A stretch of DNA of 35,492 nucleotides from Firmicutes bacterium UBA2296 (GTDB lineage Bacteria > Bacillota > UBA994), in the NCBI GenBank assembly GCA_002345475.1, contig DDWC01000034.1, forward strand, positions 1-35,492, given 5' to 3'. Both the position numbers and the translations under genes were made by a program. Under the pieces are notes generated by a model, which saw only the letters and a list, made by a program, of their open reading frames with translations, searched no databases and had not been told where the DNA came from. Position 1 is the stretch's first letter, and every line of letters starts with the position of its first letter. Positions 8,762 through 33,841 of this stretch are shown in pieces.

Positions 8762-8779
8762 GGCACAGCATACTGTGCC
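8762..8779. repeat. 18-nt palindrome GGCACAGCATACTGTGCC, a solo copy of the motif found at both ends of the IS
   Basis: It differs at one central base from GGCACAGCATGCTGTGCC at 17516-17533. The 3' flank CCGACAAAAG matches CCTACAAAAC at 17534-17543. Confidence 0.8.
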
Positions 8780-8795
8780 CCGACAAAAGATGATT

Positions 8796-8990
8796 GCCGA
8801 ATGCTTAGTGCTGAGTGGTCGTCCGCTCCACTACGCGCCCAGCGCTAACCGCCCGTAACTACTGTGGGCACAGTGTCTCCCGTCTGTGGTGTCAGTGGAG
8901 GGTTTCCCCTCCCGTATCAGATCCGATCAGGTTCAATCAGCTCTTGTCAGGCTGTCGCAAGTCAAAGCAGACTCCACTTTTCACTTTCTG
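8796..8990. repeat. short-period tandem-repeat mosaic (7-nt units, then ATCAG decamers)
   Basis: GCCGAAT GCTTAGT GCTGAGT runs from 8796. ATCAG/GTCAG ends at 8920, 8930, 8940 and 8950. This is the spacer between the radical SAM stop and the M14 start. Confidence 0.8.
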
Positions 8991-9003
8991 CTGATTGCGG
9001 AAC

Positions 9004-9912
9004 TCAATGCGCTCGTGCTCGACGCAGCCCAAACCGGCTGGCTGCTTGATGCGCCGCCATGATTTCCTGAGACGAGGGTATTCTGCCAATAACTCCATCG
9101 GACTTGGCCTGCCGGCTAGGGCTGTACTGTGCCATGATGTTGACGTAGGTATCAGTGGACATACTCTCGGCAAGAAACTGCAGAATTGCTTCTGTATCCT
9201 TTGCGTGGTCGGGCATAATCAGGTGGCGGACCAGCAGGCCACGAGTCGCCAATCCCTGGCTGTCTATGACCAGGTCGCCCACCTGTCTGTGCATCACGGT
9301 CACGGCTTCACGGACTGCCGCAGGGTATAGTCTGGTCCCAAGATAGCGTTCCGATGATGATTCGCAAAAGAACTTGATATCCGGCATATAGATGTCGACC
9401 ACGCCATCGAGCAGAGCAAGCGCCTCTAGAGAATCGAAGCCTCCGGTGTTATACACCAGCGGGATTCTCAGTCCAAGGTCCACCGCCAGGCACAGGGCAG
9501 AAAGAATCTGCGGCACATAGTGGGTGGGTGACACAAGGTTGATGTTGTGACATCCACGGTGCTGCAGCCGAATGAACAGATCCGCCAAGCGATCGACCGA
9601 GACGACTTGTCCATGTCCAAGGTGGCTTATCTCATAATTTTGGCAAAAGATACAGTGCAGGTTGCAGAGTGAGAAGAAGACAGTTCCCGAACCACTGCTT
9701 CCGGTGAGTACGCGTTCCTCGCCGAAGTGGGGAGCGGCTCCCGATATACGGACTTCACTCCCGGCCCTGCAGACTCCTTTTTCTCCTGCTGTCCGGTCGA
9801 CACCGCAGTTGTGAGGGCAGAGGTTACACTGACGTAACATCGCTTTAGCTGTTTCGGCCCGCTTAATCAGCTCACCTTCCTCATGCAACCTGACGTAGTT
9901 AGCATTGAACAT
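9004..9912 (-). CDS. radical SAM protein, PflX-like (pyruvate formate-lyase activase-related)
   Basis: It has CNLHCIFCQN (CX3CX2C) plus an N-terminal CNLCPHNCGVDRTAGEKGVC cluster. The track start is 9972, but the ATG at 9912 follows GGAGGTG by 5 nt. Confidence 0.75.
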   Translation of the reverse strand: MFNANYVRLHEEGELIKRAETAKAMLRQCNLCPHNCGVDRTAGEKGVCRAGSEVRISGAAPHFGEERVLTGSSGSGTVFFSLCNLHCIFCQNYEISHLGHGQVVSVDRLADLFIRLQHRGCHNINLVSPTHYVPQILSALCLAVDLGLRIPLVYNTGGFDSLEALALLDGVVDIYMPDIKFFCESSSERYLGTRLYPAAVREAVTVMHRQVGDLVIDSQGLATRGLLVRHLIMPDHAKDTEAILQFLAESMSTDTYVNIMAQYSPSRQAKSDGVIGRIPSSQEIMAAHQAASRFGLRRARAH

Positions 9913-9963
9913 GCTAGCACCTCCGTTCTTACCCAAGTCTGTGTGAGGCGAAAGCCGGGGAGC

Positions 9964-10047
9964 GTTCAGCATTCGGCATTCAGCAAACAGCAGTCAGCAG
10001 AAAGCGGAAGGTAGAAAAGGGATAAGGCTTGGGCCCTAGGCCCTAGC
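9964..10047. repeat. heptanucleotide repeat mosaic, 12 units in one register
   Basis: GTTCAGC ATTCGGC ATTCAGC AAACAGC AGTCAGC AGAAAGC GGAAGGT AGAAAAG GGATAAG GCTTGGG CCCTAGG CCCTAGC. Confidence 0.85.
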
Positions 10048-10216
10048 CGGTTCGCCAAATGTCTGTTTGAGTCTTGTTACTCTACATAATCCGGTTTATC
10101 AAGGTTATACGCGTATTACTGTTTCCCCTGCACCAGGGGCCGCGAGTCAGGGCCTCGCCGCTACAACCTCAAAGGGACATGGAACGAGTGACGCGATAGA
10201 AGCCCAGGGCAGGTTC

Positions 10217-10286
10217 TTGCGCTGGCTGCTGGCTGCTGAGGGCTGATTGCTCCTGCTAAGCGCCAAGTGCTAATCGCCAAGCGCCG
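10217..10286. repeat. heptanucleotide repeat mosaic, 10 units in one register
   Basis: TTGCGCT GGCTGCT GGCTGCT GAGGGCT GATTGCT CCTGCTA AGCGCCA AGTGCTA ATCGCCA AGCGCCG. It ends 4 nt before the stop codon of the DUF2087 gene. Confidence 0.85.
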
Positions 10287-10290
10287 CCTC

Positions 10291-11040
10291 TCACACCTTC
10301 ACCCAGTACCTGCTGCCGTCCCTGGTGCGTTCGAGATAGCCGTAGTCGATGAGATAGCGCCGCAACATGACATAGTCGTCGTAGAAGGCGGCCAATTTTT
10401 CGTTGATCTCTGTCTCGCTGAAGTCGGTCTTGGCCGGTATCGATTCCGCAATATGCCGTAGCACCATAACTTTTCGTTTCTGTTTGCTGGGCATTGTGGC
10501 CAACTTACCGTCTTTGAAATAGGTGTCTATAGCCTTCTTATATTCTTCCTCGGTGATGGCAAATCTCTCGTCCACCATGGTCGCCCCCTTATGCACTGGT
10601 ATAAACTTTTCGTCAGTTGTCTCCTCGACACCCAGCAGACCCATAAGTGCCAGCAGCACCCGGGCCTGACGTTCCTTCTCGCGCAGTTTGAACCGGTGGG
10701 CTCTGACGGTAGAGGTGCTGCCTCCCCCCGTCGCGCGTACTATCTCCTGGTCGCTTAAGCCGCGATGCATCAGGCCAAGAATCTGTGATTGTAACTCGGT
10801 CAGGCCGCTGAGCTTGCGATCCAGGCCCAACAAGTACTTGAACATGCCGCCATGTTCGGCGCTGACGTGCTCTCTGGCCATGCGCGGGGCGTCTAGCAGT
10901 CTGTCAGCGTGCCGGTAAATGACGCCAAGCTCGAACTTGTGGCCACAGATAAGGCAGACATAGTCGTCGCCATCACGAGTGTATCCCTGGGCCAGCTGGT
11001 CGGCCGAAGCACTCCAGAAACGTTCGTCAGTTTGATTCAA
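10291..11040 (-). CDS. DUF2087 domain transcriptional regulator with a zinc-ribbon and a LuxR/sigma region-4-like HTH
   Basis: It carries CLICGHKF, then LTELQSQILGLMHRGLSDQEIV...STVRAHRFKLR, then a C-terminal DUF2087-like YVMLRRYLIDYGYLER. The start is uncertain: TTG at 11040 has GAGGAG 8 nt upstream, ATG at 11058 is an alternative, and the track start at 11076 falls upstream of the predicted transcription start. Confidence 0.65.
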   Translation of the reverse strand: MNQTDERFWSASADQLAQGYTRDGDDYVCLICGHKFELGVIYRHADRLLDAPRMAREHVSAEHGGMFKYLLGLDRKLSGLTELQSQILGLMHRGLSDQEIVRATGGGSTSTVRAHRFKLREKERQARVLLALMGLLGVEETTDEKFIPVHKGATMVDERFAITEEEYKKAIDTYFKDGKLATMPSKQKRKVMVLRHIAESIPAKTDFSETEINEKLAAFYDDYVMLRRYLIDYGYLERTRDGSRYWVKV

Positions 11041-11078
11041 AGCAAACACTCCTCGCATATGTTGAATATTACACAAAC

Positions 11079-11107
11079 ATAATACAGTTTCGTTTATAAT
11101 GTGTCAA
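11079..11107 (-). promoter_or_regulatory. sigma-A type promoter of the DUF2087 gene
   Basis: On the minus strand this reads TTGACA (11107-11102), a 17-nt spacer, then TATTAT (11084-11079). Confidence 0.55.
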
Positions 11108-11227
11108 CGACCCGCTAGCCGCCAGCCACGTGCCGTGTACGGTCCGTAGTTAATGTTTAGCGCACAAAGAGGATTTGCGGGCTTTCCGTTGAACAAAAAT
11201 AGGATAACTTCCTAAGGGGGCAGGACA

Positions 11228-12901
11228 ATGAGCACTGCAGATACAGGTAGCAACTTCATCCATACCCAGATAAACGAGGATCTGGCCAGCGGGCGATACG
11301 ACCGGGTACATACCCGCTTCCCCCCGGAGCCGAACGGCTACATGCATATCGGCCACGCTAAGGCTATATTGCTCAACTATTCCACCGCTCAGCTTTACGG
11401 GGGAAAGTTCAACCTGCGCTTTGATGATACTAACCCCGTCAAGGAAGAGACCGAGTTTGTGGAAGCGATTATTGACGATATCCATTGGCTGGGTGCGGAA
11501 TGGCAGGATCGGCTGTTTTTCACCTCCGGCTATTTCGAGCGGCTTTACGAACTGGCCGAGGGCCTGATTATTGACGGTAAGGCCTATGTTTGCGATCTGG
11601 ACAAGGACCAGACCAGGGAGTATCGGGGAACTTTGACCGAGCCTGGGAAGGACAGCCCGTATCGCAGTCGCTCGGTGGAAGAAAACCTTGATCTTTTCCG
11701 CCGAATGCGGGCTGGCGAGTTCTCCGAGGGCTCGCGGGTATTGCGTGCCAAGATTGACATGTCCTCGCCCAACATCAATATGCGCGACCCGGTTTTGTAC
11801 CGCATAATGCACGCCGAACACCATCGCAGCGGCGATGAATGGTGCATTTATCCCATGTACGACTATTCACATCCCTTATCTGATGCCTTTGAAGGTATCA
11901 CCCATTCACTGTGCAGCATAGAATACGACGACCACCGTCCCCTTTACGATTGGTTTCTGGAGAACACCGGGTTTACGGCGTCTGACAGGCCCAGGCAGAT
12001 TGAGTTTGCCCGGCTGAACCTGACTTATACAGTGATGAGCAAACGCAAGTTGCTTAAGCTCGTGCAGGACAGACACGTTGCGGGCTGGGATGATCCCCGC
12101 ATGCCCACAATTGCCGGGCTTCGCCGCAGAGGCTACACTGCCAGTTCCATACAGAATTTTGCCGAGCGCATCGGTGTGGCCCGGGCAGACAGCACAGTAG
12201 ACTTAGCCGTCCTGGAGCACTGCATAAGGGAAGAGCTAAACAGCAGCGCGTCACGTATCATGGCGGTGCTGAAGCCCCTTAAGGTAGTAATCACCAACTA
12301 TCCTGACGGTCAGACTGAAACCCTGCATGTAGAAAACAACCCTGAGAACCCAGATGCCGGAAGCCGCGAGGTGCCGTTCTGCCGTGAGGTCTATATCGAG
12401 GCGGACGACTTCATGGAAGACCCCCCGCGCAAGTTCTTCAGGCTGGTGCCGGGTGGAGAAGTGCGGCTAAAAGGCGCGTATATTATCCGCTGCGATGACG
12501 TCGTCAAGGATGCCGAAGGCAATGTGGTGGAACTGCGCTGCAGTTATGACCCGGAAACAAGAAGTGGCGGCGCCAACAGCGGCAAAAAGGTCAAAGGCAC
12601 GCTGCATTGGGTATCGGCGAAGCACGCAGTACAATCGGAAGTGCGCCTTTACGACAACCTGTTCACCGTGGAAAACCCAGGCGCCAGCGAGGACTTTGCT
12701 TCAATAATCAATCCGGATTCGCTCACAGTCCTTGGCAACGCCCTGGTGGAACAGAGCGTGGCGGACATGGCCGCGGGAACCCGCTTTCAGTTCATGCGAC
12801 AGGGATATTTCTTCCTGGAGTCTGTATCACAGGACGGCCGCCCCGTTTTCAACCGCATCGTAGGTCTAAAGGACACCTGGTCCAAAATGCAGAAGGCATA
12901 G
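11228..12901 (+). CDS. glnS: glutamine--tRNA ligase
   Basis: A 557-aa ORF. The class I signatures are [14 protein letters not shown] (HIGH) and VMSKRK (KMSKS), and the overall GlnRS pattern includes YPMYDYSHP. Confidence 0.92.
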
Positions 12902-12936
12902 CCGGAGAAGGTCCCACATAGCAATATCAAAGCAAG

Positions 12937-12970
12937 AAGGAAGAACCACCTGGCAAGGTGGTCCTTCCTT
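12937..12970 (+). terminator. rho-independent terminator of glnS (shared with the convergent DJ-1 gene)
   Basis: AAGGAAGAACCACC tggcaa GGTGGTCCTTCCTT pairs at 13 of 14 positions and is followed by TTT. Confidence 0.65.
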
Positions 12971-12971
12971 T

Positions 12972-13568
12972 TTACCTGGCTTTACCCAGTACCTCAATTA
13001 ATGTGCGGTTGAACTCTTCCATGCCGCTGCTTTGCGAGGTTATGACCAGGTCCGACACCGACACAGGACCGGGCACGTAGACGCCGCCACCCGCTTCTAT
13101 GGTGGACGAGGCGGTACCGGTCGCCTTGATCCCCTCCAGAACTCCCGCATGAGCCATAACTCCTGTTCCGGCGCAGATCCCGGCTATAAGTTTTCGTTGT
13201 CTGTGAAAATGTCTTATGAGTGACAGGGCTTCGGCTGATTTGACCAGTCGTTCTCCAGAAAACCCGCCCGGTATCACCAGAGCGTGAAAATCGCTGGGGT
13301 CTACATCACCGATGGCTACTTCTGCTTCTATGGTCTGGCGTGGCTCGTCCATAGCGGTAACCAGCCCTACTTGGGGCGCAACCACCACCACGGTGCCGCC
13401 ATGTTTTTCAACGGCTTCAATGGTGGCTTTCGCATAGACATGGAGATAACGCTCGTCTACCAGCAGAGCCACCCTTTTACCGTGCAGATTAACGGGCGCG
13501 GTGCATCCCGCGAGAGTGATGAGTAATAGTGTCAGGGCCAGAATAAACGATCTAGTTGTCGCTCGCAT
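12972..13568 (-). CDS. DJ-1/PfpI family protein with a lipoprotein signal peptide
   Basis: A 198-aa ORF. The N-terminus MRATTRSFILALTLLLITLAGC contains a lipobox (LAGC). The nucleophile elbow is AGICAGTGV. Confidence 0.75.
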   Translation of the reverse strand: MRATTRSFILALTLLLITLAGCTAPVNLHGKRVALLVDERYLHVYAKATIEAVEKHGGTVVVVAPQVGLVTAMDEPRQTIEAEVAIGDVDPSDFHALVIPGGFSGERLVKSAEALSLIRHFHRQRKLIAGICAGTGVMAHAGVLEGIKATGTASSTIEAGGGVYVPGPVSVSDLVITSQSSGMEEFNRTLIEVLGKAR

Positions 13569-13658
13569 TTGCTGAAATCACCCCCCAGGGTAACGTAGCA
13601 TAAACCGCAAAGATCGAACGAGGACTATCATTTGAGGAGTAGCACTAATCGTTCTGCT

Positions 13659-14687
13659 CTAGCGCAAGAGAGCCTTCTTCATGGGCTCGGGAATAGGCAG
13701 GTCGGCTTCCAGAGCCTTGGCAGCCCGCACAGGCCATTGTGCGTCGTGAAGGTATGCGCGTCCCACAGCCACAAGGTCGCAATCCTGATTGCGCAGGGCA
13801 TACTCGGCCAAAGAAGGCTCACCCAGCAACCCCACGGCAATGACCGGTATGGCCACACTTTGCTTTATGGCCCTGGCCAATGGCAGCTGGTAGCCCGGCC
13901 ACACTTCGGGCCTGACGGGAACGCTGCCGCCGCTGCTGACGTGTATTGCCGCCATGCCCATAGCCTCAAGTTCCAGACACAGAGCGATGATGTCTTCCAG
14001 TGTGTAGCCGTTAGCGTCGTATTCGCTGGCGGACACCCGGACAGTGAGAGCGCAATCTGGTCCGATGTGGGGTTGGCAGGCTGCCACAGTCTCCTTTAGA
14101 AAACGGTGCCTGTTCTCCCTGCTTCCTCCATACCGGTCGGTACGTCTGTTGGAAAGCGGGGAGATGAACTGATGTATGAGATAACCATGAGCCCCGTGGA
14201 GTTCCATCACTTTGTACCCTGCGGCGACGGCCCGGCGAGTAGCCTCCGCAAAGGCGTCAATGGCCTCAGCTATGTCCGAGATACTCATGGCTTCAGGCAC
14301 ACGGTGTTCAGGCGAAAAAGCGACGGCCGAGGGTGCCAGCAGGCGGTCTACACCAGCCCATGACTTGCGTCCGGCGTGTCCAAGCTGAACCGCGGGGACC
14401 GAGCCAAAGTAGGCTATGGTCTCCGCCAGGCGAGCCAGTGGCTCTACGTGAGCATCGTCCCACAGGCCAAGGTCGCAGCCAGAAATCCTGCCGTCGGCAG
14501 TTACTGCTGTTGCTTCCAGTATGGTAAGCGCCGCGCCAGCTAGGGCGCGCACCCCGTAATGAGCGGTGTGGTAAGGGTTGGCCAGTCCCATGTCACCGGC
14601 GCTGTACTGACACATAGGTGGTAGTACAATCCGGTTCCGCAGTGACACCGGGCCGATCTTTGACGGTGTGAAAAGAATGTTTTCCAT
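13659..14687 (-). CDS. NADH:flavin oxidoreductase, Old Yellow Enzyme YqjM/NamA type
   Basis: A 342-aa ORF. It has the LPPMCQYS motif of YqjM-type OYEs and the ELHGAHGYLIHQF active-site stretch. AAGGAGG lies 7 nt before the ATG. Confidence 0.85.
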   Translation of the reverse strand: MENILFTPSKIGPVSLRNRIVLPPMCQYSAGDMGLANPYHTAHYGVRALAGAALTILEATAVTADGRISGCDLGLWDDAHVEPLARLAETIAYFGSVPAVQLGHAGRKSWAGVDRLLAPSAVAFSPEHRVPEAMSISDIAEAIDAFAEATRRAVAAGYKVMELHGAHGYLIHQFISPLSNRRTDRYGGSRENRHRFLKETVAACQPHIGPDCALTVRVSASEYDANGYTLEDIIALCLELEAMGMAAIHVSSGGSVPVRPEVWPGYQLPLARAIKQSVAIPVIAVGLLGEPSLAEYALRNQDCDLVAVGRAYLHDAQWPVRAAKALEADLPIPEPMKKALLR

Positions 14688-14812
14688 AGTAGACCTCCTT
14701 ATTGGACATTGTACTGGTTTTCGTCATTTTGTGACGTTTTCCTCCCCACGAGGGAGCAGGATTACGTCTGCGAAGAGGGAATTCTATGGGTAAGGAAGGG
14801 AGTGTTTTGGTC

Positions 14813-15673: not shown

Positions 15674-15680
15674 AATAGCT

Positions 15681-15805
15681 ACCAGCCGCCAGCCGCCAGC
15701 CGCCAGGGGGAGACGTGGGGTTAGACGTTAGACGTTGGACGTGAGGCGCTAGTGAGTAGCACTCGGCATTTGGCGTTCTGCACTAAGCAGTCGGGAAGTA
15801 ACCGG
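15681..15805. repeat. heptanucleotide repeat mosaic
   Basis: CCAGCCG occurs three times (15682-15702). It is followed by TTAGACG TTAGACG TTGGACG TGAGGCG (15721-15748), then CTAGTGA GTAGCAC TCGGCAT TTGGCGT TCTGCAC TAAGCAG. Confidence 0.85.
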
Positions 15806-15842
15806 CTTTGCGCATGTTTATCGCGTTAGGAGGCAAGGAATG

Positions 15843-17538
15843 GTAGGGGCACAGCATGCTATACCGTCCATTTATCGCTGTTTTACAGGATGCTATAAGG
15901 CAAAAGTTCACCTCTGTTTCAGGATATGCTACTAGAGTGACATAAATTGAGTGGGAACCACCCTGTCATGGGCTACGGGTTCGTCTTGCTTGGCTCACTC
16001 TCTATCGAGAGCTAACCCGAACAGGCTATCCACTGCTTCCGGCAGAGGACAGTAATGCGCTTTATGTTAGTGACAATCGCAGAGAGCAAGGCTTGAAACT
16101 CACCGGCTACAAGACCTATTCCCTCTAACCGATCGAGGCCATGTCGGCACTTGAGCTCGGAGTTCTTGTGTTCAATTGCCATGCGGGTAAGCACATGGTT
16201 GCGATTTCTTGTTAGTAGCAACCTGGCTCTCGCTACGTCCTTGTGGTAACGATTGAACTCGACTGCTCGTGCTTTCGCCTTGGTGCATTCATCCTTCTTA
16301 GGGCACTGGCCACAATCTGCTGGATCGAACGTAAACTTAAGTCCTTCCTCACCGTCAAACTTCACCGGGTTGGTTGCTACGCGTCCCTCTGGGCAGATGA
16401 GCCTGTTGTCCTGCGTCAGAATGAACTTGTCCTTGTGAAAGGGTGAGTTGCGTTGTCCGTTGGATTTCTTAGGGATCAGGGCTTCTACTCCCTTTGAGTG
16501 GAGATCGCGATAGTTCTCGCCGTGGCCATAGGCCGAATCTGCAAACAGTTGCTCGGGGACTATACCTGTGGACTCTACGTGGCTCTCGAAGACTTCTTTG
16601 AGGTAGGATCCCTCATCATGATTGGCAGGAACAAAGCTCAAAGCCGTGATGATCTCGGAATCCGCGTCCATGGCAATGATGGCGTTATACCCTAGCTTCT
16701 GTTGTCTATTCCTGTAGGCTACTCTAGCCTCCGGATCAACTGGAGTCGCTATCTTGTCTGGCTTGCCCTGACCATCAAGCATCGTTTCCAGCACGTCTGC
16801 TGTTCTCCTTTGCCGCGGCGTAAGCTCCACATTCTTCAACTTCTCAATTACAGACCTGGCGAAGGCGATTCTCTCCTCCAAGTCTGTGCTTGCAGGCAAC
16901 TGCACACTTCCCCACAGCCCAGCCCGTTTCAGCAACCGTCGCGCAGTCATAACCACTACCGTGCCGTGAGCCTTAAGCTTGGTGTTGGCCAGAACTATGG
17001 TCCCATCAACCACCACTCTGGTGCCTTTGATCATTCCTTTGGCACGCGCCTGCACGACAACATCCCGGAAAATCTTGCGTAGCTTGATGTTACCCATGCG
17101 CAAACGAGCGAAGTTACTCAAGGTAGCTTTGCAGGGCAACTCATCTGATGTGTTAATGCCGATAAACCATCTAAATGCAGCGTCGGTATTGGCACGGTCA
17201 AGCACCTGCGAGAGGCTCAAGTTGTAAATCCGCTGGAGTAGTAGCAATTGAAACAGAACCGTGGGGTCGTAACCAGGGGCTCCCTTACCGTTCCATGAGT
17301 ATGAATCATATACCAGCGAGTCAACCATTGATAGGTCAACAGCAGCTTTGAACTGCCGCAACTTATGTTTAGCAGGAACCATTTGCTCGTACATGAAATG
17401 GCTAAAGACGTCCAGTTGGTCACTCTTGCGAAACATGCTACCACTCCCCCTTGAAACTAGCCCTATTATACCATTTGTGCCGTTTTTAAGGAGTAATGGT
17501 GGCTATTAATTAAACGGCACAGCATGCTGTGCCCCTAC
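15843..17538 (-). mobile_element. IS1182-family-like insertion sequence (outer bounds)
   Basis: A single DDE transposase ORF is flanked by perfect 18-bp inverted ends: GTAGGGGCACAGCATGCT (15843-15860) and AGCATGCTGTGCCCCTAC (17521-17538). Similarity continues imperfectly inward (ATACCGTCCATTTA versus GTGCCGTTTAATTA). An extended -10, TGGTATAAT (minus strand, 17473-17465), and AAGGGGGAG precede the ATG. An alternative reading gives the IS as 15861-17515 with a 13-bp duplication of GGCACAGCATGCT. Confidence 0.7.
16012..17436 (-). CDS. IS1182 family (IS5-like superfamily) DDE transposase
   Basis: A 474-aa ORF. The N-terminal DUF772-like motif is LFQLLLLQRIYNLSLSQVLDRANTDAAFRWFIGI, and the C-terminal motif is EHKNSELKCRHGLDRLEGIGL. 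The size fits IS1182 rather than IS5 proper. Confidence 0.8.
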   Translation of the reverse strand: MFRKSDQLDVFSHFMYEQMVPAKHKLRQFKAAVDLSMVDSLVYDSYSWNGKGAPGYDPTVLFQLLLLQRIYNLSLSQVLDRANTDAAFRWFIGINTSDELPCKATLSNFARLRMGNIKLRKIFRDVVVQARAKGMIKGTRVVVDGTIVLANTKLKAHGTVVVMTARRLLKRAGLWGSVQLPASTDLEERIAFARSVIEKLKNVELTPRQRRTADVLETMLDGQGKPDKIATPVDPEARVAYRNRQQKLGYNAIIAMDADSEIITALSFVPANHDEGSYLKEVFESHVESTGIVPEQLFADSAYGHGENYRDLHSKGVEALIPKKSNGQRNSPFHKDKFILTQDNRLICPEGRVATNPVKFDGEEGLKFTFDPADCGQCPKKDECTKAKARAVEFNRYHKDVARARLLLTRNRNHVLTRMAIEHKNSELKCRHGLDRLEGIGLVAGEFQALLSAIVTNIKRITVLCRKQWIACSG

Positions 17539-17849
17539 AAAACAAGGACATGTCACCGACATGCCCTATGCTGAATGCTCACTGCTGATTGCTCCCCACC
17601 GCGAGCCACGGTCTCGCCGCTACGTTCTAAGAAGAGCTGACAACGAACAACTGACAACGCTCCCGCGTTCCACCAATCGCCAAGCACCCGTGCCCCCAGT
17701 GGTCGCCGTGTCCCCGACTGTGGTAGCTGTGTCTGGTAATCCCATCCTCTATCAGCGCCCATCAGTCCTTATCAGGCTTATCAGGCTGTCGTAACCTCGC
17801 CTGGTGGCTGGCGCCTGGTAGCTGGTGGCTGGCGGCTGGCGGCTCTCCC
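17539..17849. repeat. short-period tandem-repeat mosaic (7-nt units plus ATCAG decamers)
   Basis: It contains GCTGAAT GCTCACT GCTGATT GCTCCCC (17570-17597) and ACAACGA ACAACTG ACAACGC. ATCAG occurs at 17751, 17761, 17771 and 17780. CTGGTGG CTGGCGC CTGGTAG CTGGTGG CTGGCGG CTGGCGG runs across 17801-17842. The block ends at the rex stop codon. Confidence 0.85.
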
Positions 17850-18589: not shown

Positions 18590-18602
18590 CTGGTTAAAAA
18601 TC

Positions 18603-19163: not shown

Positions 19164-19202
19164 TGTACCCCTTTCATCATGAAGGCTTCGAAGCAGGGGC
19201 TT

Positions 19203-19286
19203 CTGGCTCCTGGCTCTTGGCTCTTGGGAGTTCGGCTCCTTGTATGCATTCCTAAGAGCTAAGAGCTAGCAGCCAAGAGCTCTCCG
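19203..19286. repeat. heptanucleotide repeat mosaic arranged as an inverted pair, 12 units in one register
   Basis: CTGGCTC CTGGCTC TTGGCTC TTGGGAG TTCGGCT CCTTGTA TGCATTC CTAAGAG CTAAGAG CTAGCAG CCAAGAG CTCTCCG. The right half is the approximate reverse complement of the left half. Confidence 0.85.
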
Positions 19287-19302
19287 GCTACCTTGCGGCC
19301 GC

Positions 19303-23270: not shown

Positions 23271-23711
23271 CTAAAGTGGCTGGCAGAAAATAGCCTGTAA
23301 AGCCTGCCGCAGCTCGTCCTCGCTGGCGTTTTCTATCATGGCGTATTCTCCGAGGGCCTTAAGCCCCACAAACCGCGGCTTGCCCGCCGCGCTCTTTTTG
23401 TCCGCTTTAAAGTAAGGCTGCAAGTCCTCGTAACCGTAAGTGGTACAAGTGGGCAGGCCCAATCCACCCAGCAGCTTTCTCACCTCGTCTTCGACTTTCC
23501 GCTCCAGCCCAAATCTCAATTGCGAAAGCCTCAGCGCCGCCAGAAGCCCCAACCCCACCGCCTGCCCGTGGTTATACTCGCTGTACTGCCCCACCGCCTC
23601 CAATGCATGGGCAAAGGTGTGCCCCAGGTTAAGCTGCTGCCGCGCCCCCGTGTCCAGCGGGTCAGCGGCGACGACAGAGGCTTTGTAGCTCAGACAAGCC
23701 TGGATTAGGGG
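23271..23711 (-). pseudogene. aroB: 3-dehydroquinate synthase remnant, C-terminal ~40% only (5'-truncated)
   Basis: PLIQACLSYKASVVAADPLDTGARQQLNLGHTFAHALEA...NHGQAVGLG...GLP...DKK matches the C-terminal domain of AroB (compare E. coli KAEVVAADERE..LNLGHTFGHAIE). No N-terminal Rossmann half appears in any frame. Upstream of 23711 the track ORF is only read-through of the heptamer repeats. Confidence 0.75.
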
Positions 23712-23856
23712 CTCTTGGCTCTTAGCTCTTAGTTCTTGGAGTAGGGCGTGAGAGGAGGAGTCTTGCGCTAAGCGCACGTCCCTCGCTCCTCCTGGCGGCT
23801 GGTGGCTGGCGGCTGGTGGCTCACCCTCTAAGCGCCAAGCGCCAAGCGCTAAGCGC
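23710..23856. repeat. heptanucleotide repeat mosaic, 21 units in one register
   Basis: GGCTCTT GGCTCTT AGCTCTT AGTTCTT GGAGTAG GGCGTGA GAGGAGG AGTCTTG CGCTAAG CGCACGT CCCTCGC TCCTCCT GGCGGCT GGTGGCT GGCGGCT GGTGGCT CACCCTC TAAGCGC CAAGCGC CAAGCGC TAAGCGC. Confidence 0.9.
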
Positions 23857-23871
23857 CCGTCAGCGCCATGC

Positions 23872-23897
23872 AAAAAGAGCAGGCATGCGCCTGCTCT
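23872..23897 (-). terminator. rho-independent terminator of the FMN-binding lipoprotein gene
   Basis: On the minus strand this reads AGAGCAGGC gcat GCCTGCTCT (9-bp stem) followed by TTTTT. It lies 30 nt after the stop codon. Confidence 0.75.
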
Positions 23898-23927
23898 TTG
23901 GTAGGTAATCAAGTGATCGTCTTAGTA

Positions 23928-24686: not shown

Positions 24687-24767
24687 TTGTGTACCTCCAT
24701 GATTTTAAAGTATTCTGTGCGCCCATATGCCCTGCCTACCTCAGGAAACACGGTCGCACTCCCTAAC

Positions 24768-24796
24768 ATAATACACCTTTGCGACAGAAATATCAA
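24768..24796 (-). promoter_or_regulatory. sigma-A type promoter of the FMN-binding lipoprotein gene
   Basis: On the minus strand this reads TTGATA (24796-24791), a 17-nt spacer, then TATTAT (24773-24768). It gives a leader of about 80 nt. Confidence 0.5.
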
Positions 24797-24840
24797 AGGG
24801 TTTATGTATTTATACCAGTAACTTAATCGAAGTTAAATAC

Positions 24841-27107: not shown

Positions 27108-27234
27108 TTCCCATCTCCTCCTATAATGTGCACAATATCACGTAGTTCAATTGGTGATTATATCATGTTAGTCGCTCTAATTACACATAATAGAGGGTTT
27201 TTCGCCATTCGGTCTCTCGATTTCCGGGTCTGGT

Positions 27235-27262
27235 TTGCAGCTTGCCCCGTCTGGTATATAAT
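27235..27262 (+). promoter_or_regulatory. candidate promoter of ylbF-ychF
   Basis: TTGCAG (27235-27240), a 16-nt spacer, then TATAAT (27257-27262). Confidence 0.4.
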
Positions 27263-27282
27263 ATCCTGAGAACAAAACGGAG

Positions 27283-28755: not shown

Positions 28756-28792
28756 CCACACCGTGGCGTATGTGGCGCTTAGCGATACGAGG

Positions 28793-28890
28793 GCCGCCAG
28801 CCGCCAGCCGCCAGCCTCCAGCAGGGATGTTTTTCGAACGTCTAACGTCTAAAGTCTAAAGCCTATAGTCTAACGTCCCTAGTCTGACCG
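28793..28890. repeat. heptanucleotide repeat mosaic, 14 units in one register
   Basis: GCCGCCA three times, then GCCTCCA GCAGGGA TGTTTTT CGAACGT CTAACGT CTAAAGT CTAAAGC CTATAGT CTAACGT CCCTAGT CTGACCG. Confidence 0.9.
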
Positions 28891-28953
28891 GGAGGATAGT
28901 CGTTTGTCGCTCCCGGAATATTTGATTTACGATTTATGTTTTTTGTTTGTCGA

Positions 28954-28981
28954 GCGCTAAGCGCTAAGCGCCAAGCGCCGT
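28954..28981. repeat. heptanucleotide repeat array
   Basis: GCGCTAA GCGCTAA GCGCCAA GCGCCGT. This is the same unit family as 23829-23856 and lies 18 nt upstream of the nadE start. Confidence 0.85.
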
Positions 28982-28998
28982 CAGAAAGGCGGTACATC

Positions 28999-29730
28999 AT
29001 GTCAAACTACAAACAGATGGCGGACGACTTGAGCAACTGGATAGCATTGCAGGTCAAGGCTGCTGGCTTAAAGGGTGCGGTATTTGGACTGAGTGGGGGC
29101 ATTGACTCCGCAGTGGTGGCCGGCCTGGCCAGACGCGCCCTGGGGCGAAACGCTTTGGGTGTTATTATGCCCTGCCACTCGAATCCGGAGGATAGGGAGC
29201 ACGCTCTGCTTTGTGCCCATGCCTTTGATCTTCCTGTGGCCGAGGTAGACCTCGGGCCGACCTATGACAAGTTGTTAAGCACCTTGCTGGAGGCGGCTCC
29301 CGACATTTCACCGGACCGCATGAGCAAGGCCAATCTTAAACCCAGGCTGCGCATGTCGACCCTTTACTACTTTGCCAACGTCCATTCCTATCTGGTGCTT
29401 GGGACCGGCAATCGCAGTGAACTGACTGTCGGCTATTTCACCAAACATGGTGATGGCGGCGTAGACGCTATGCCCATTGCCGGGCTGGTGAAATCAGAAG
29501 TCAGGGGCCTGGCGACCGAACTCGGCGTTCCTGGCGAAATTATTGACAAGCCTCCCTCTGCGGGGCTCTGGGAAAACCAGACCGATGAGGGCGAAATGGG
29601 GCTCAGCTATAAGCAACTGGACAGCTATATTTTGACCGGTGAAGCCGAACCGGAGATTCGTCAACGCATAGAAAGACTCATGGCCGGGAGCGCGCACAAA
29701 CGAAAGCTGCCACCCACGCCTCAGTCATAA
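28999..29730 (+). CDS. nadE: ammonia-dependent NAD+ synthetase
   Basis: It has the SGGIDSAVVA PP-loop and the NRSELTVGYFTKHGDGG motif. The ATG at 28999 (MSNYKQMADDL) is preferred, because the track start at 28936 lies inside the repeat array. Confidence 0.88.
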   Translation: MSNYKQMADDLSNWIALQVKAAGLKGAVFGLSGGIDSAVVAGLARRALGRNALGVIMPCHSNPEDREHALLCAHAFDLPVAEVDLGPTYDKLLSTLLEAAPDISPDRMSKANLKPRLRMSTLYYFANVHSYLVLGTGNRSELTVGYFTKHGDGGVDAMPIAGLVKSEVRGLATELGVPGEIIDKPPSAGLWENQTDEGEMGLSYKQLDSYILTGEAEPEIRQRIERLMAGSAHKRKLPPTPQS

Positions 29731-29743
29731 GGAGGATTACACC

Positions 29744-30475
29744 ATGGCGGGACATTCAAAATGGGCTAAGATCAAGCACCGCAAGTCGAAACAGGATGCA
29801 GCCAAGGGCAAGATGTTCACCAAAGTTGCCAAGGAAATCATCATGGCGTCCAAGGCCGGCGGTGGAGATCCGGCAGCTAACTTCAGGCTGCGTATCGCCA
29901 TAGATAATGCCAAGGCCATCAACATGCCCACCGACAACATCAATCGCGCTATCGCCCGGGGAATCGGCGGCACGGAAAGTGACAACTACGAAGAGTTTAC
30001 TTACGAGGGGTACGGACCGGGCGGAGTAGCCATCATGTTGGACATTGCCACCGATAACCGTAACCGCACTGCCGGCGATATCAGGCACCTCTTCTCCAAA
30101 TACGGCGGGAATCTAGGTGAGACCGGTTGCGTAAACTGGATGTTCTCCAAAGTAGGCATGATAGTGGTCGAGAGGGAAGATTCGCCTCTTTCGGAGGACC
30201 AACTGTTGCTGATGGCCGCGGAGGCCGGGGCCGACGATCTTTCGGGCGATGAGGACTCCTTTCAGATAACCTGTGCCCCCGAGGCCATCTGGCAGGTTAA
30301 AGCTTCCCTTGAGGAACAGGGTGTAACACCGGTCAGCGCCGAGGTTACTTATGTGCCAAGTAATACGGTAGCTGTCCAGGGGGATGACGCTGTGCGCCTG
30401 ATGAAACTAATGGAACTCCTCGATGACCACGACGACGTTCAAGAGGTTTACGCCAATTTTGACATAGAAGAATAG
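29744..30475 (+). CDS. yebC: YebC/PmpR family DNA-binding transcriptional regulator
   Basis: A 243-aa ORF with the hallmark N-terminus MAGHSKWAKIKHRK. AAGGAGG lies 8 nt upstream. Confidence 0.92.
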   Translation: MAGHSKWAKIKHRKSKQDAAKGKMFTKVAKEIIMASKAGGGDPAANFRLRIAIDNAKAINMPTDNINRAIARGIGGTESDNYEEFTYEGYGPGGVAIMLDIATDNRNRTAGDIRHLFSKYGGNLGETGCVNWMFSKVGMIVVEREDSPLSEDQLLLMAAEAGADDLSGDEDSFQITCAPEAIWQVKASLEEQGVTPVSAEVTYVPSNTVAVQGDDAVRLMKLMELLDDHDDVQEVYANFDIEE

Positions 30476-30480
30476 TCGAA

Positions 30481-30512
30481 AAGAGGAGCCCTGCCCGGGC
30501 TCCTCTTTTCTT
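30481..30512 (+). terminator. rho-independent terminator of yebC
   Basis: AAGAGGAGCCC tgccc GGGCTCCTCTT (11-bp stem) followed by TTCTT. Confidence 0.8.
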
Positions 30513-30646
30513 GCCACAGCTTCAGCCTTTTCATAAACGAAATTTACCTCTTTCGGGAGCAGGATTAATTCGTCACTGGGCGAATATCCATCTTTGGAGT
30601 GCAGAATCAGGTGCTCCGAAGGCTCAAACCAAAGGAGGTGAAAACT

Positions 30647-31429
30647 ATGTCAATGATCCCCAATACCATGTTTGCTTTCTTCTCGTTGATCATCATCGGC
30701 GTCACCATTATCGGTGTACTGCAGATGACCAAGCAGGGCAAGATGCATCCAAAGCTGCGCCGCCTGGCCGGTTTGGACGCGCTTGAGGAAGCGATTGGAC
30801 GCGCCACAGAAATGGGTCGCCCCATCCACTATTCTCCCGGATACGGCGACATCACCAACACCAACGCTCCGGCTACCTTCGCATCCTTCGCCATCCTGTC
30901 CCACGTTACGGGGCTTTCAGCCAAGTACAATTCTCAGCTGATCGTCACCTGTAAGTCCCCCCAGTCCTTCCCGCTCATCCAGGAACTGGTCCGCACAGCT
31001 TATGCCGCGGCCGGACGCCAGGATATGTTCAAGGAAGACACCGTGCGCTTTATCTCCGAGGCTCAGTTTGCCTGGGCTGCCGGCGTACTCGGTATCTTCG
31101 TGCGTGAGAAGGTCGCTGCCAACATCATGATCGGTTACTTTATGGCCGAATCCCTGTTGTTTGCGGAAGGCGGAGCTCAAGTCGGCGCGATTCAGATCGC
31201 TGCCACCAGTAACATGGCACAGACCGCGTTTTTCGTCGCAGCTTGTGACTACGTGCTACTGGGTGAAGAGCTCTACGCCGGTGGTGCGTACCTCTCTCAG
31301 GACCCCATCAAGGTCGGCAGTATCGCCGGTCAGGACTACGTCAAGGCCATCTGTATGGTGTTTATCTCGGTTGGCACCATTATGCTCACCTTTGGTAGCG
31401 ACTGGTTGGTTCTTTTGACACGAAAGTAA
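30647..31429 (+). CDS. uncharacterised membrane protein 1 of a four-gene operon
   Basis: The ATG at 30647 lies 7 nt after AAAGGAGGTG; the track start at 30599 has no SD. The 260-aa product has an N-terminal TM helix (FAFFSLIIIGVTIIGVL), a hydrophilic domain of about 110 aa containing HYSPGYG, and several C-terminal hydrophobic segments. I recognise no family. Confidence 0.6.
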   Translation: MSMIPNTMFAFFSLIIIGVTIIGVLQMTKQGKMHPKLRRLAGLDALEEAIGRATEMGRPIHYSPGYGDITNTNAPATFASFAILSHVTGLSAKYNSQLIVTCKSPQSFPLIQELVRTAYAAAGRQDMFKEDTVRFISEAQFAWAAGVLGIFVREKVAANIMIGYFMAESLLFAEGGAQVGAIQIAATSNMAQTAFFVAACDYVLLGEELYAGGAYLSQDPIKVGSIAGQDYVKAICMVFISVGTIMLTFGSDWLVLLTRK

Positions 31430-31471
31430 TCATGTGCGGATTCATTTCATCACAAGAAGGGAGGTGTAGAT

Positions 31472-32122
31472 GTGCGTAGAGAAGTTCCGTTAGTCATTAC
31501 TTTCGTCATCGGTGTGTTACTTATCGCTTCTTATTTCCTGCAAGGACCAATACTGGGCGGTGAATATACCTGGAAGACCTTGTCCTCGGACATTACCAAC
31601 TGGGGTGTTCTGGTATCAGCTTTCGCTGTGGGTATTGCGGCAGTAAACCTGACCCGCATTCACGGTAACAAGATCACCAATCAGAGGCCTGGTTTTATCA
31701 ACAGTATAGCTTTGATTGGCACCATGGTTATTTTCATTGCCGTTGGCGTGTTTAACAAACATTTCGGGACGGCCGGTACCAGGGCCTTGTTCCAGAACAT
31801 GTTTGACTACATTCTGTCACCGCTGGGCGCCGCCATGTTTGCCATTATTGCCTTTTACGTGGCTTCGGCGTCGTATCGTGCTTTCCGCGCTCGTAGCGCA
31901 GAGGCCACTATGCTACTGATTGCCGCTATCATTATGATGATGGCCAGTGCTCCAATTGGCGCTCTTATATGGAGCAAATTCCCGGTTATCGGCAAGTGGT
32001 TGCTTGACGTGGTCAATATGGCCGGTCAGCGCGGCATCCGGCTCGGTGTTGCTATCGGTGGTTTTGCCGCCAGTATGCGTATCCTGCTTGGTATCGACCG
32101 CGGCCATCTCGGTAGCGAATAA
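31472..32122 (+). CDS. uncharacterised polytopic membrane protein 2 of a four-gene operon
   Basis: A GTG start lies 5 nt after GGGAGGTG. The 216-aa product has about 5-6 hydrophobic helices. I recognise no family. Confidence 0.6.
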   Translation: MRREVPLVITFVIGVLLIASYFLQGPILGGEYTWKTLSSDITNWGVLVSAFAVGIAAVNLTRIHGNKITNQRPGFINSIALIGTMVIFIAVGVFNKHFGTAGTRALFQNMFDYILSPLGAAMFAIIAFYVASASYRAFRARSAEATMLLIAAIIMMMASAPIGALIWSKFPVIGKWLLDVVNMAGQRGIRLGVAIGGFAASMRILLGIDRGHLGSE

Positions 32123-32149
32123 TATTGTAAGAAAGGAGGTGTCCTGAAG

Positions 32150-32977
32150 ATGAATTGGTTGGACAAACTTCAGCAGATCGACCGCAGGGTCATTTACACA
32201 TTGTTGCTTGTTGTATTACTTATTCCTATGTTTCGCCCCCTCGGTATTCCTCTTGAGGTCAATATGACCACACAAAAGGTCTATGACCTGGTACAGGCCC
32301 TTGACCCTGCCCGTGATGTCGCTCTGTTTGTTATGGACTATTCCCCCGGTGGGTCTCCTGACGTGCATCCCCAGGCGCTTATCGTCGCCGAACATCTCGC
32401 CCAGCGCGGTGTTCGAACCATTATGGTTTCGTTCGTAGACGCCGGGCCCATGTTCGCCGAACAGGTGCTTGACCACGTCAGCAAGAAGTACGACATAGTA
32501 TACGGAACGGACTTCGTCAACCTCGGTTATCTGGCCGGAATGGAAACGGCGATCAAGAACTTCGCCGAAGCTCCCCACACCGCATTTGAGCGCGATTTCC
32601 GCAACAATCCCGTAGCCAGTATGCCTATTATGGCCGGTATCACGCACATCACCGACATCGCGTTCATTATTGACTTTCAGACCGGTGACCCCGGCTATAA
32701 CGCGTTTCTTAAACAGGTTCAAGGCCCCTACGGTGTCACCTATGCCGCCGGCATAGTCACCGTCAGCGTCCCCAACGCCATGCCCTTCGTGCAATCAGGC
32801 CAGATCAGCGGACTGTTGCAGGGCCTGCGCGGTGCGGCAGAATACGAAGTATTGGTAGGTTCACCGGGCGCCGGTGCCGCCAAAATGGACGCTCAGTCTT
32901 TGGGTCACTTATTGATAATTGGTTTTATTATCGTTGGTAACGTCGCCTACTTCCTTAACAAAAAGAAGGCGGTCTAG
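32150..32977 (+). CDS. uncharacterised bitopic membrane protein 3 of a four-gene operon
   Basis: The ATG lies 9 nt after AAAGGAGGTG. The 275-aa product has an N-terminal TM (VIYTLLLVVLLIPMF), an alpha/beta-looking domain of about 210 aa containing DYSPGGS, and a C-terminal TM (LLIIGFIIVGNVAYFL) followed by a KKK tail. Confidence 0.6.
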   Translation: MNWLDKLQQIDRRVIYTLLLVVLLIPMFRPLGIPLEVNMTTQKVYDLVQALDPARDVALFVMDYSPGGSPDVHPQALIVAEHLAQRGVRTIMVSFVDAGPMFAEQVLDHVSKKYDIVYGTDFVNLGYLAGMETAIKNFAEAPHTAFERDFRNNPVASMPIMAGITHITDIAFIIDFQTGDPGYNAFLKQVQGPYGVTYAAGIVTVSVPNAMPFVQSGQISGLLQGLRGAAEYEVLVGSPGAGAAKMDAQSLGHLLIIGFIIVGNVAYFLNKKKAV

Positions 32978-33018
32978 CATGGGTCCAGAATACTATTTGA
33001 GTCTGAGGAGGTGAAACA

Positions 33019-33657
33019 ATGAACATCTCAATGGATCCCTGGGTATGGCTTATGGGACTTGGTATGTTGGCGATTTTTTCCTTTGTATATAAGGAGAATG
33101 CTATCTACCGCCTTTTTGAACATATTTACGTAGGGGCCGCCGCGGGCTACACCATCGTCGTCAACTACGGCAACATAGTTGACCGCGGTATCATGCCGCT
33201 CTTTAAGCAGGGCAAGTACAATCTGGTCGTTCCGCTTATTATCGGCCTGTTGCTGTACGCGCGCTTCTTCAAGAACATTGCCTGGCTCAGCCGTTGGGCT
33301 ATCGCTTTCCTGCTGGGCATCGGTGTTGGCGTCTCCACTTTCGGCGAGGTCAACTCGGTCATTATCGCGCAGGTTCGCGCCAGTATGATGACCCTCATCG
33401 TGCGCAACGGCGCCGGCGTGTTCCAGCTGGGGCGCAGCGTTAACAACTGGATTATGGTTTTGGGAACCCTCTCGGTTCTACTGTACTTCTTCTTCTCCGT
33501 AGAGCAGAAGGGCCTTGTGAAGCACGGTTCAGCTTTGGGACGCGCTATCATGATGATTACCTTTGGTGTTTCCTTCGGTAACGTCGTCATGGGTCGTATC
33601 TCATTGCTGCTAGGCTCACTGGAGACCATCTTTGGTCAGTGGCTGGGTCTACTATAA
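33019..33657 (+). CDS. uncharacterised polytopic membrane protein 4 of a four-gene operon
   Basis: The ATG lies 6 nt after GAGGAGGTG. The 212-aa product has about 6 hydrophobic helices. I recognise no family. Confidence 0.6.
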   Translation: MNISMDPWVWLMGLGMLAIFSFVYKENAIYRLFEHIYVGAAAGYTIVVNYGNIVDRGIMPLFKQGKYNLVVPLIIGLLLYARFFKNIAWLSRWAIAFLLGIGVGVSTFGEVNSVIIAQVRASMMTLIVRNGAGVFQLGRSVNNWIMVLGTLSVLLYFFFSVEQKGLVKHGSALGRAIMMITFGVSFGNVVMGRISLLLGSLETIFGQWLGLL

Positions 33658-33670
33658 TAGCCTAATCCGC

Positions 33671-33700
33671 AAACCCGCGGCTCACACGCCGCGGGTTTTT
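33671..33700 (+). terminator. rho-independent terminator of the four-gene membrane operon
   Basis: AAACCCGCGGC tcacac GCCGCGGGTTT (11-bp stem) running into TTTTT. It lies 13 nt after the stop codon. Confidence 0.85.
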
Positions 33701-33771
33701 CCATGCAGGTATTTCGCCATAAACGTCGAACTGGTGTTCATAGGCCACGGGCGTCGCCCGTGAAGGACGAG

Positions 33772-33841
33772 AGGCTGTTGGTTGTTAGCTGTTGGCTCTT
33801 GGTAGTTCTCCGAAGAGCTAAGAGCCAGGAGCCAAGAGCTC
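33772..33841. repeat. heptanucleotide repeat mosaic arranged as an inverted pair, 10 units in one register
   Basis: GGCTGTT GGTTGTT AGCTGTT GGCTCTT GGTAGTT CTCCGAA GAGCTAA GAGCCAG GAGCCAA GAGCTCC. It ends 34 nt before the ruvC ATG. Confidence 0.9.

Follow-up and report, generated by a model that had tools for sequence, protein, structure and literature searches.

Intergenic heptanucleotide repeat arrays of several unit families in an uncultured Firmicute lineage

Introduction

Heptanucleotide repeats are over-represented in the intergenic DNA of bacteria, a finding that dates from 1990 and 2007 and still has no explanation. Here we describe arrays of such repeats in a 35,492-nucleotide stretch of DNA from Firmicutes bacterium UBA2296 (GenBank assembly GCA_002345475.1, contig DDWC01000034.1, positions 1 to 35,492), referred to in its entirety as the window. 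The arrays are an example of this known, still unexplained repeat class and do not represent a new class of element. Short tandemly repeated repetitive (STRR) heptanucleotides were reportedly described in heterocystous cyanobacteria by Mazel et al. in 1990. STRR sequences resemble the window arrays in that they are tandem heptamers, intergenic, present as several families per genome, dispersed in many copies and without known function. They differ in host, which is a cyanobacterium rather than a member of the Bacillota, and in their units, CCCCAGT, TTGGTCA and CAACAGT (STRR1-3), none of which is found in tandem in the window. An initial annotation of this DNA, made from its letters alone, took STRR to be the only analogue; the comparison is apt, but the long simple sequence repeats (SSRs) of Mrazek and the repeats of Xanthomonas and Nostoc are analogues as well.

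The repetitive extragenic palindromic (REP) sequences and bacterial interspersed mosaic elements (BIMEs) of enterobacteria are built from ~35-nt palindromic units with a GTAG head and are mobilised by RAYT transposases. Like the window arrays, they are mosaics of short intergenic modules that can form hairpins, follow gene ends in either orientation and differ from strain to strain in their presence. Their units are palindromes, however, whereas the window holds direct heptamer arrays without the REP/BIME module organisation, and no RAYT (Y1) transposase is encoded within the 35-kb window. Contiguous 7-bp heptads are also found in omega-type arrays, where they lie in promoter regions and are read by a ribbon-helix-helix repressor; the window arrays, in contrast, avoid divergent promoter spacers.

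The survey of Mrazek, Guo and Shah (2007), as it is summarised in later work (PMC4679880, PMC4692102), found heptanucleotides to be the most over-represented units among long SSRs (unit length 5-11 nt), placed these SSRs in free-living bacteria with larger genomes, and suggested polymerase slippage. The survey is older than the lineages considered here, and mosaic composites and a strong four-unit mode lie outside its description as summarised there. The window arrays are SSRs of this kind, being head-to-tail iterations of a unit of 5-11 nt that are longer than expected by chance.

In Xanthomonas, GGGAATC arrays are 89-93% intergenic and mostly of four units, form 70-75 inverted pairs with stem-loop potential, lie between divergent genes in only 7-8% of cases, differ from species to species and serve no function that could be demonstrated (Rehm et al. 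2015, PMC4692102). These arrays and the GGGGA(Y)T arrays of Nostoc share with the window a mode of about four units, inverted pairs, depletion from divergent spacers and interspecies variation in length and sequence (Rehm et al. 2015, PMC4692102). A single G-rich unit, able to form a G-quadruplex, dominates in each of Xanthomonas and Nostoc, whereas the window has at least five families without G3 tracts and, unlike Xanthomonas and Nostoc, carries its arrays embedded in larger dispersed composites. Indeed, there is no G3 tract in the window units GGCTCTT, AAGCGCC, CCAGCCG, GTTAGAC and ATTCAGC, nor any tandem GGGAATC or GGGGATT in the window, so a G-quadruplex explanation of the four-unit mode in Xanthomonas cannot be general. 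TAACTGA repeats, found in 2-6 copies between unrelated genes of marine Beggiatoaceae, cyanobacteria and Bacteroidetes, are likewise short, scattered, intergenic heptamer arrays common to distant phyla (MacGregor 2015, PMC4679880). They consist of a single unit, are nearly always direct (one inverted in 170) and lie just upstream of start codons (PMC4679880), whereas the window arrays comprise many units, are often paired in inverted orientation and lie at no set distance from start codons.

Results and discussion

Period-7 arrays are dense across a Firmicute clade

Tandem Repeats Finder (TRF) places ~22 period-7 rows between 9961 and 33839 of the window and none in 1-8.6 kb, a region that had also appeared free of arrays to the initial annotation. 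In a sliding lag analysis, 42-nt windows with at least 70% self-identity are found at 61 positions for lag 7 and at 9 for its double, lag 14, and none is found at any other lag from 1 to 15. There are 16 strict runs at lag 7 (12 or more matches in 14), where Markov shuffles give 0.1, with none at lags 5, 6, 8, 10 or 11 and one at lag 9; measured against shuffled controls in this way, the periodicity claimed for the window spacers is borne out. Eight of the ten intervals originally singled out have a lag-7 identity of 0.55-0.86 (z 6-9), and the signal is patchy and degenerate at 8796-8990 (0.35) and 17539-17849 (0.39). TRF arrays are present at every block that had been claimed except 8796-8990.

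The glutaminyl-tRNA synthetase (GlnRS) of the window is 93% identical to that of a metagenome-assembled genome (MAG) named 'Bacillota bacterium' and 66-68% identical to those of Syntrophomonadaceae and Desulfotomaculia, a clear indication that the host belongs to an uncultured Firmicute lineage, in agreement with the Firmicute-like character first read from the gene content. By the same measure the contigs L123 and L124 come from relatives at 87% and L125 from one at 74%; these contigs are syntenic with the window and equally rich in heptamer arrays. Strict lag-7 runs occur at 0.37 per kb in the window, 0.49 in the relatives and 0.023 in ~777 kb of unrelated metagenome contigs, retrieved through a palindrome scan with GGCACAGCATRCTGTGCCCCKACAA, which is a 16-21-fold difference. 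Period-7 TRF rows likewise number 46 in 77 kb of the clade and 47 in the same background (~10-fold). The unit families of the window are shared by the 87% relative, and those of the 74% relative are mostly different.

The window matches three independent assemblies (one from JGI, two from ENA) over 14.8, 9.9 and 4.6 kb at 99.85-99.97% identity with no gaps, and the overlap spans the blocks at 8796-8990, 9961-10286 and 15676-15782. The arrays are not assembly artefacts, because they are ungapped in all three. An assembly or vector artefact is also contradicted by the recurrence of the same families in related species from other samples and by the length of the arrays (up to 30 nt), which is shorter than assembly k-mers. 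What speaks for it is that one contig, L001, is identical to the window up to 17534 and has different DNA beyond, to the right of an insertion sequence (IS): the two take different paths through IS copies, so that at least one of them may be a repeat-induced join. We consider the chance that the arrays are artefactual to be negligible.

Array size, unit turnover and a probable cycle of birth and decay

Five main unit families are found, RGCTCTT/AAGAGCY, GGCGCTT/AAGCGCC, CCAGCCG/CTGGCGG, GTTAGAC/GTCTAAC and ATTCAGC/GCTGAAT, and each occurs in several spacers and in both orientations, a recurrence that the initial annotation had recognized. Single-linkage clustering of units with up to one mismatch merged most families and was dropped, since that many links are expected by chance. 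The initial annotation had further proposed that each block keeps a single 7-nt register across drifting families and had hinted at a templated process. Phase is not generally kept between separated arrays of the same unit, being scattered outside one long degenerate array, and between different families the register lock is trivial because a rotation can always be chosen. The block at 23710-23856, which had been read as 21 consecutive in-phase units, is interrupted by a 52-nt linker without periodicity, and only about half of the families contain the AGC or GCT thought to sit at a fixed offset (GCT has offset 1 in GGCTCTT and offset 4 in GGCGGCT). The register lock, which had lent the blocks the look of an exotic templated product, thus fails when tested.

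Among the intergenic period-7 arrays of the clade, those with 2, 3, 4, 5 and 6 whole copies number 6, 11, 16, 5 and 1, respectively, a mode of about four units (28-30 nt), and every other period peaks at two. Several arrays have a period-14 superstructure whose identity (92-100%) exceeds that at period 7, as in CTGGCGGCTGGTGG, repeated 2.1 times at 100%. Whole-unit length change between related copies, the mark of slipped-strand events, is seen in this superstructure and in a 14-nt (two-unit) indel inside (GTTAGAC)n that separates window 15676-15782 from L001 10244-10365. Perfect, presumably young, arrays lie side by side with degenerate, presumably old, ones in the same DNA, and one orthologous position is occupied by (CGTCTAA)4 in one species and by (TCTTTGC TGAACGC)n in the other.

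We therefore favor, as the probable explanation, that the blocks are lineage-wide non-coding heptanucleotide SSRs of the same class as STRR, the long SSRs of Mrazek and the Xanthomonas/Nostoc repeats, passing through a cycle of birth and decay. In such a cycle a heptamer in an unconstrained spacer would be duplicated in steps of 7 or 14 nt, by replication slippage or tandem duplication, to about four units (~30 nt), and point mutations would then degrade the array. Re-amplification of a variant unit would give the apparent drift between families and the turnover of units at one site. Arrays could reach further spacers as parts of mosaic repeats, moved in either orientation (by ectopic recombination or non-autonomous transposition), and complementary arrays brought together in one spacer would gain the potential for a long hairpin. 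Presumably neutral, the arrays would persist where they are harmless, downstream of or between co-directional genes, and would be purged from divergent promoter spacers.

Several observations weigh against birth and decay. It leaves the period of seven without explanation. Array sizes peak at four units and drop sharply at five, with no monotonic decay, and the three assemblies of the population have no indels over ~14.7 kb at 99.97% identity. Over short times, then, the arrays are not hypermutable, and a peak at four units with a sharp cap, together with full stability within the population, is not expected from plain slippage; the cap may reflect instability above the length needed for efficient homologous recombination. 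The copy-number variation that might have been looked for in related DNA is thus found between paralogues, with the same families present in relatives, but not among the three assemblies. Arrays and parts of their sequence are retained at orthologous sites between species. Lastly, selection for structure could lie behind the inverted pairing and above-chance spacer folding described below.

Arrays are modules of larger dispersed repeats

The initial annotation overlooked that the arrays belong, as modules, to larger mosaic repeats that related species also carry. These are segments of 100-250 nt that recur at 72-86% identity in spacers that are not orthologous, are found in two species and in either orientation, and include the pairs L123 7084-7330 and L124 5018-4775, L124 4889-5017 and window 17797-17670, and window 15676-15782 and L001 10244-10365. 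Dispersal as mosaic modules would account for the presence of the same families in many spacers. The composites are not built from heptamers alone, since they also include a conserved module of period-9/10 repeats of ATCAGGCYT (TATCAGG core), present at window 17761-17787, L001 11633-11656 and L123 7150-7200. Spacers change rapidly between species with 87% identical GlnRS, with lengths of 412 versus 39 nt (the 8796-8990 spacer of the window and its ortholog in L123) and 378 versus 729 nt. Behind the APH gene, one species has blocks of ~150 and 43 nt that the other lacks. The array beside the DUF2087 stop, in contrast to such turnover, is kept at the orthologous site (window 10254-10286 and L123 7309-7337).

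Dispersal of this kind might also be expected of non-autonomous mosaic elements resembling miniature inverted-repeat transposable elements (MITEs), with heptamer arrays as terminal inverted repeats and a transposase acting in trans. The composite segments are indeed scattered over more than one species and in either orientation, and orthologous spacers differ by the presence or absence of blocks of 150-370 nt. In L124, the stretch 6163-6592 is flanked by (GGCGCTT)4 and, inverted, (CCAAGCG)4, and an IS1182-family element and a REP-like palindrome lie inside the same spacers. No target-site duplication, sharp boundary or defined end is found in the orthologous comparisons, however, and the order and content of modules vary from copy to copy, an indication that the segments are mosaics and not units. 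The copies are moreover only 72-86% identical, and heptamer arrays of other units are found in many phyla without these composites. We regard a MITE-like nature as unlikely.

Arrays are non-coding and depleted from divergent spacers

The arrays are non-coding, as the initial annotation had concluded. Where open reading frames (ORFs) appear to run through them, the ORFs are called too long: the start of nadE is at 28999, preceded by a Shine-Dalgarno sequence, and the ORF at 23271-23912 is a 5'-truncated aroB with homology only from ~23708. Such arrays thus inflate ORF calls (the truncated aroB, nadE) and can mislead assemblers.

With spacers classified from gene calls that reproduce the database calls, arrays are found in 14 of the 40 spacers of the window and its relatives that contain a gene 3' end and in none of the 10 divergent ones (Fisher p=0.025); the corresponding numbers in other phyla are 66 of 336 and 12 of 99. 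The four divergent spacers of the window had been described as free of arrays. This holds for 5336-5458, 14688-14812 and 27108-27282, which have no lag-7 signal, and not quite for 11041-11227, where a weak relic is found (GCTAGCC GCCAGCC ACGTGCC; lag-7 identity 0.35, p=0.0025). In tandem spacers the arrays lie no nearer to stops than to starts.

The avoidance of promoters speaks against the idea that the arrays would bind a protein that reads 7-nt or 7-bp units, for which the omega-repressor heptads of pSM19035 (DNA) and Csp/S1/CsrA-type binders (RNA) provide models. A strict period of seven with a mode of four units, in both direct and inverted orientations, would suit such arrays, and protein binding has been proposed for the TAACTGA repeats (MacGregor 2015, PMC4679880). 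The at least five unrelated units in 35 kb, replaced at orthologous sites, would however require many binding specificities, and no candidate binding protein is encoded in the window. Binding arrays are, in our judgment, very unlikely.

Searches for known RNA and repeat types are in keeping with the initial view that the blocks are not CRISPR, REP or ordinary terminators. There are no Rfam 15 matches at the gathering score, and permissive thresholds gave only chance matches (E 0.22-0.38); a tRNA/tmRNA search gave nothing either. A CRISPR array, which has repeats of 23-50 nt and unique spacers of similar length, is ruled out by units that are 7 nt long and contiguous. Intrinsic terminators were considered for the hairpins at 19198-19281 and 33773-33839 and rejected, as neither is followed by a T-run on either strand. 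A terminator-like scan of the window gave 21 matches against 20.1 expected, showing no enrichment, and a promoter consensus scan was likewise at the level of shuffles. Canonical terminators are found separately at 33668-33700 and ~23860-23900.

Complementary arrays form hairpins in some spacers

Two blocks, 19198-19281 and 33773-33839, are hairpins of complementary arrays, a feature not remarked on initially. The minimum free energy of 19190-19295 is -60 kcal/mol on the plus strand (z=-5.4) and -43.7 kcal/mol on the minus strand, and that of 33765-33850 is -40.6 kcal/mol on the plus strand (z=-3.9). At 15682-15742 and 28793-28978, unrelated arrays are strung together and fold no better than shuffles (z about 0). 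Taken whole, the array-bearing spacers of the window fold somewhat above dinucleotide shuffles (z -1.4 to -4.3) and the divergent controls are near 0; the single relative spacer folded, L124 6134-6676, is not above shuffles (z -0.7 to -0.8). A test for RNA-level selection through G.U strand asymmetry in hairpin pairs between co-directional genes gave no signal, the better-folding strand being sense in five cases and antisense in four.

These hairpins raise the possibility of REP/BIME-type structure elements, in which stems of ~30 bp, as RNA or as DNA cruciforms, would serve as mRNA 3'-end protectors, U-tract-independent terminators or insulators, or RNase III sites, tandem heptamers being merely an easily evolvable route to long stems. 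The high stability of both hairpins, the above-shuffle folding of whole spacers but not of divergent controls, the uniform arm length of ~30 nt and the recurrence of inverted pairs across phyla and in Xanthomonas are consistent with such a role, as are the position of many arrays 4-8 nt from stop codons and their absence from divergent promoter spacers. Many blocks, however, have no complementary partner (15682/15720 and 28793-28978), and the better-folding strand is independent of the sense strand. Nor do the hairpins have a U-tract; canonical terminators are separate from them, and the hairpin at 33773-33839 lies downstream of a terminator, in the ruvC leader. The rapid turnover of spacers between species and the lack of any bias toward stops in tandem spacers are further points against structure elements, which we judge possible but not likely.

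A truncated aroB at one block and the repair-filler alternative

The gene aroB (3-dehydroquinate synthase; 23271-23708, minus strand) has only its C-terminal domain, with ~210 N-terminal residues missing, and its truncation point coincides with the start of the heptamer block at 23710..23857. A search with the fragment for an intact aroB orthologue gave only fragments of 42-47% identity.

A block placed exactly at a truncation point might be filler DNA, written at a break-repair junction by iterative, microhomology-primed or snap-back synthesis, for example by a LigD-type polymerase of non-homologous end joining (NHEJ). Ku/LigD is probably encoded by many of the taxa rich in heptamers. Direct and inverted arrays of one unit lie side by side, and array length is apparently quantal (~30 nt), as such filler might be. 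Arrays are nonetheless kept at orthologous sites, ordinary slippage fits the 14-nt indels equally well, and filler synthesis provides no explanation for the period of seven. We give this origin little credence.

Heptamer arrays in other phyla

A genome-collection scan with CCRCCAGCCRCCAGCCRCCAG, which is (CCRCCAG)3, is unspecific in that many of its matches are coding 21-nt repeats in high-GC genomes. Among the matches listed, heptamer arrays are found in Acidobacteriota (Vicinamibacterales, Blastocatellia, Bryobacterales), Planctomycetota, Chloroflexota (Ardenticatenaceae), Gemmatimonadota and a Heliobacteriaceae MAG, and these loci contain several separate arrays of other unit types, often as inverted pairs such as (GGATYGA)n...(TCCATCY)n, (TATAGGT)n...(ACCTGTA)n and (GGCTGGT)n...(CCACCAA)n. 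With the pattern-matching arrays removed, the sizes again peak at 3-4 units and drop at five. The window adds a Firmicute lineage to the known carriers, and these loci add Acidobacteriota, Planctomycetota, Chloroflexota and Gemmatimonadota.

The multi-family mosaics, the dispersal of arrays within mosaic modules and a four-unit mode without G-quadruplex potential are useful observations added here. That the four-unit mode, inverted pairing and avoidance of divergent spacers are independent of G-rich units weakens the G-quadruplex explanation. It is conceivable, although we doubt it, that a conserved process other than slippage writes heptamer arrays of about four units (~30 nt), often with an inverted partner, into spacers across many phyla; candidates are a repair polymerase that acts at breaks by snap-back or iterative synthesis, and selection for modular 30-bp stems. 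Were this so, a clade with at least five non-G-quadruplex families and composites would separate the general rule (7 x 4) from the G-quadruplex explanation.

Table 1. Heptamer blocks and associated modules of the window
Position	Feature	Basis	Context
8796..8990	Degenerate mosaic with weak signal	Lag-7 identity as low as 0.35; absent from TRF	
9961..9999	Degenerate array AGCATTC/ATTCAGC, 5.6 units	TRF; lag-7 identity 0.66 over 9964-10047	49 nt upstream of the start (9912) of the minus-strand radical-SAM gene
10221..10286	(GCTGGCT)2.6, then period-14 array (TGCTAAGCGCCAAG)2	TRF	Ends 4 nt from the DUF2087 stop at 10291; right part orthologous to L123 7309-7337
15676..15782	Composite module: (CCAGCCG)3.6 15682-15706, linker, (GTTAGAC)3.3 15720-15742, tail	TRF	Paralogues at L001 10244-10365 (14-nt indel), L124 6424-6491 and L123 6896-6960 (reverse complement)
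17568..17658	Degenerate arrays (ATGCTGA)3.7 and (CTGACAA)3.1	TRF	
17670..17797	Non-heptamer mosaic module (CCCCAGTGGT..CTGTGGT..), then period-9 (ATCAGGCTT) repeats		79% identity to L124 4889-5017, reverse orientation
17801..17844	(CTGGYGG)6.3 with period-14 superstructure	TRF	Array end 5 nt from the rex stop (17850); complement of the CCAGCCG array at 15682
19198..19281	Hairpin: arm (GGCTCYT)4.3 19198-19227, loop 24 nt, arm (CTAAGAG)4.3 19252-19281	TRF, folding	Between pepP stop and efp start (Pfam)
23710..23857	Mosaic: (GGCTCTT)4.3 23710-23739, linker, (CTGGCGG CTGGTGG)2.1 23792-23821, (AAGCGCC)4 23830-23857	TRF	Linker 23740-23791 (52 nt) without periodicity, with inner hairpin; adjoins 5'-truncated aroB
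28793..28978	(GCCGCCA)4.3 28793-28822, (GTCTAAM)5.4 28840-28877/85, small hairpin, (AGCGCTA)3.7 28953-28978	TRF	Between ychF stop (28755) and nadE start (28999)
33773..33839	Hairpin: arm (GGCTSTT)4.3 33773-33802, loop 10 nt, arm (AAGAGCY)3.9 33813-33839	TRF, folding	Behind canonical terminator (33668-33700), 35 nt upstream of ruvC, in the ruvC leader

An insertion sequence, a widespread palindrome and other features of the window

An IS1182-family insertion sequence occupies 15843-17543 and encodes a 474-aa transposase (16012-17436; NF033551). Its 25-bp inverted repeats are GTAGGGGCACAGCATGCTRTRCCGT, the outer 17 nt of which are one half of a 28-nt perfect palindrome, GTAGGGGCACAGCATGCTGTGCCCCTAC, so that the IS either carries the palindrome or inserts into it. 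The palindrome is REP-like, with a GTAG head, and is an element distinct from the heptamer arrays. It is found at the IS ends (15843-15867 and 17519-17543), as a variant at 8761-8790, and in L123 at 7033-7060.

A metagenome scan with GGCACAGCATRCTGTGCCCCKACAA, the palindrome core plus flank, gave at least 120 contigs with G+C contents of 31-67% and unrelated flanks. Among the matches listed, the perfect 28-mer is present in 30 of the 120 contigs, and no homologue of the window transposase is encoded in the 120 listed loci (777 kb). Only one viral contig carries the palindrome. Variants with compensatory changes (CACGGCATGCCGTG) are also seen, and the 28-nt sequence has no match in the literature. 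The presence of one identical GC-rich palindrome in such different genomes is unexplained.

The (CTGGTGG)n arrays at 17801-17844 and 23792-23821 include one copy of the E. coli Chi octamer GCTGGTGG in each unit, probably by coincidence, as the other families lack Chi and the host is a Firmicute. The first 2400 nt of the window have a lower G+C content than the rest (0.43-0.49 versus ~0.55), contain no heptamer arrays and encode an AbiEii-family toxin (1517-2374), on account of which the region may be a small mobile island.

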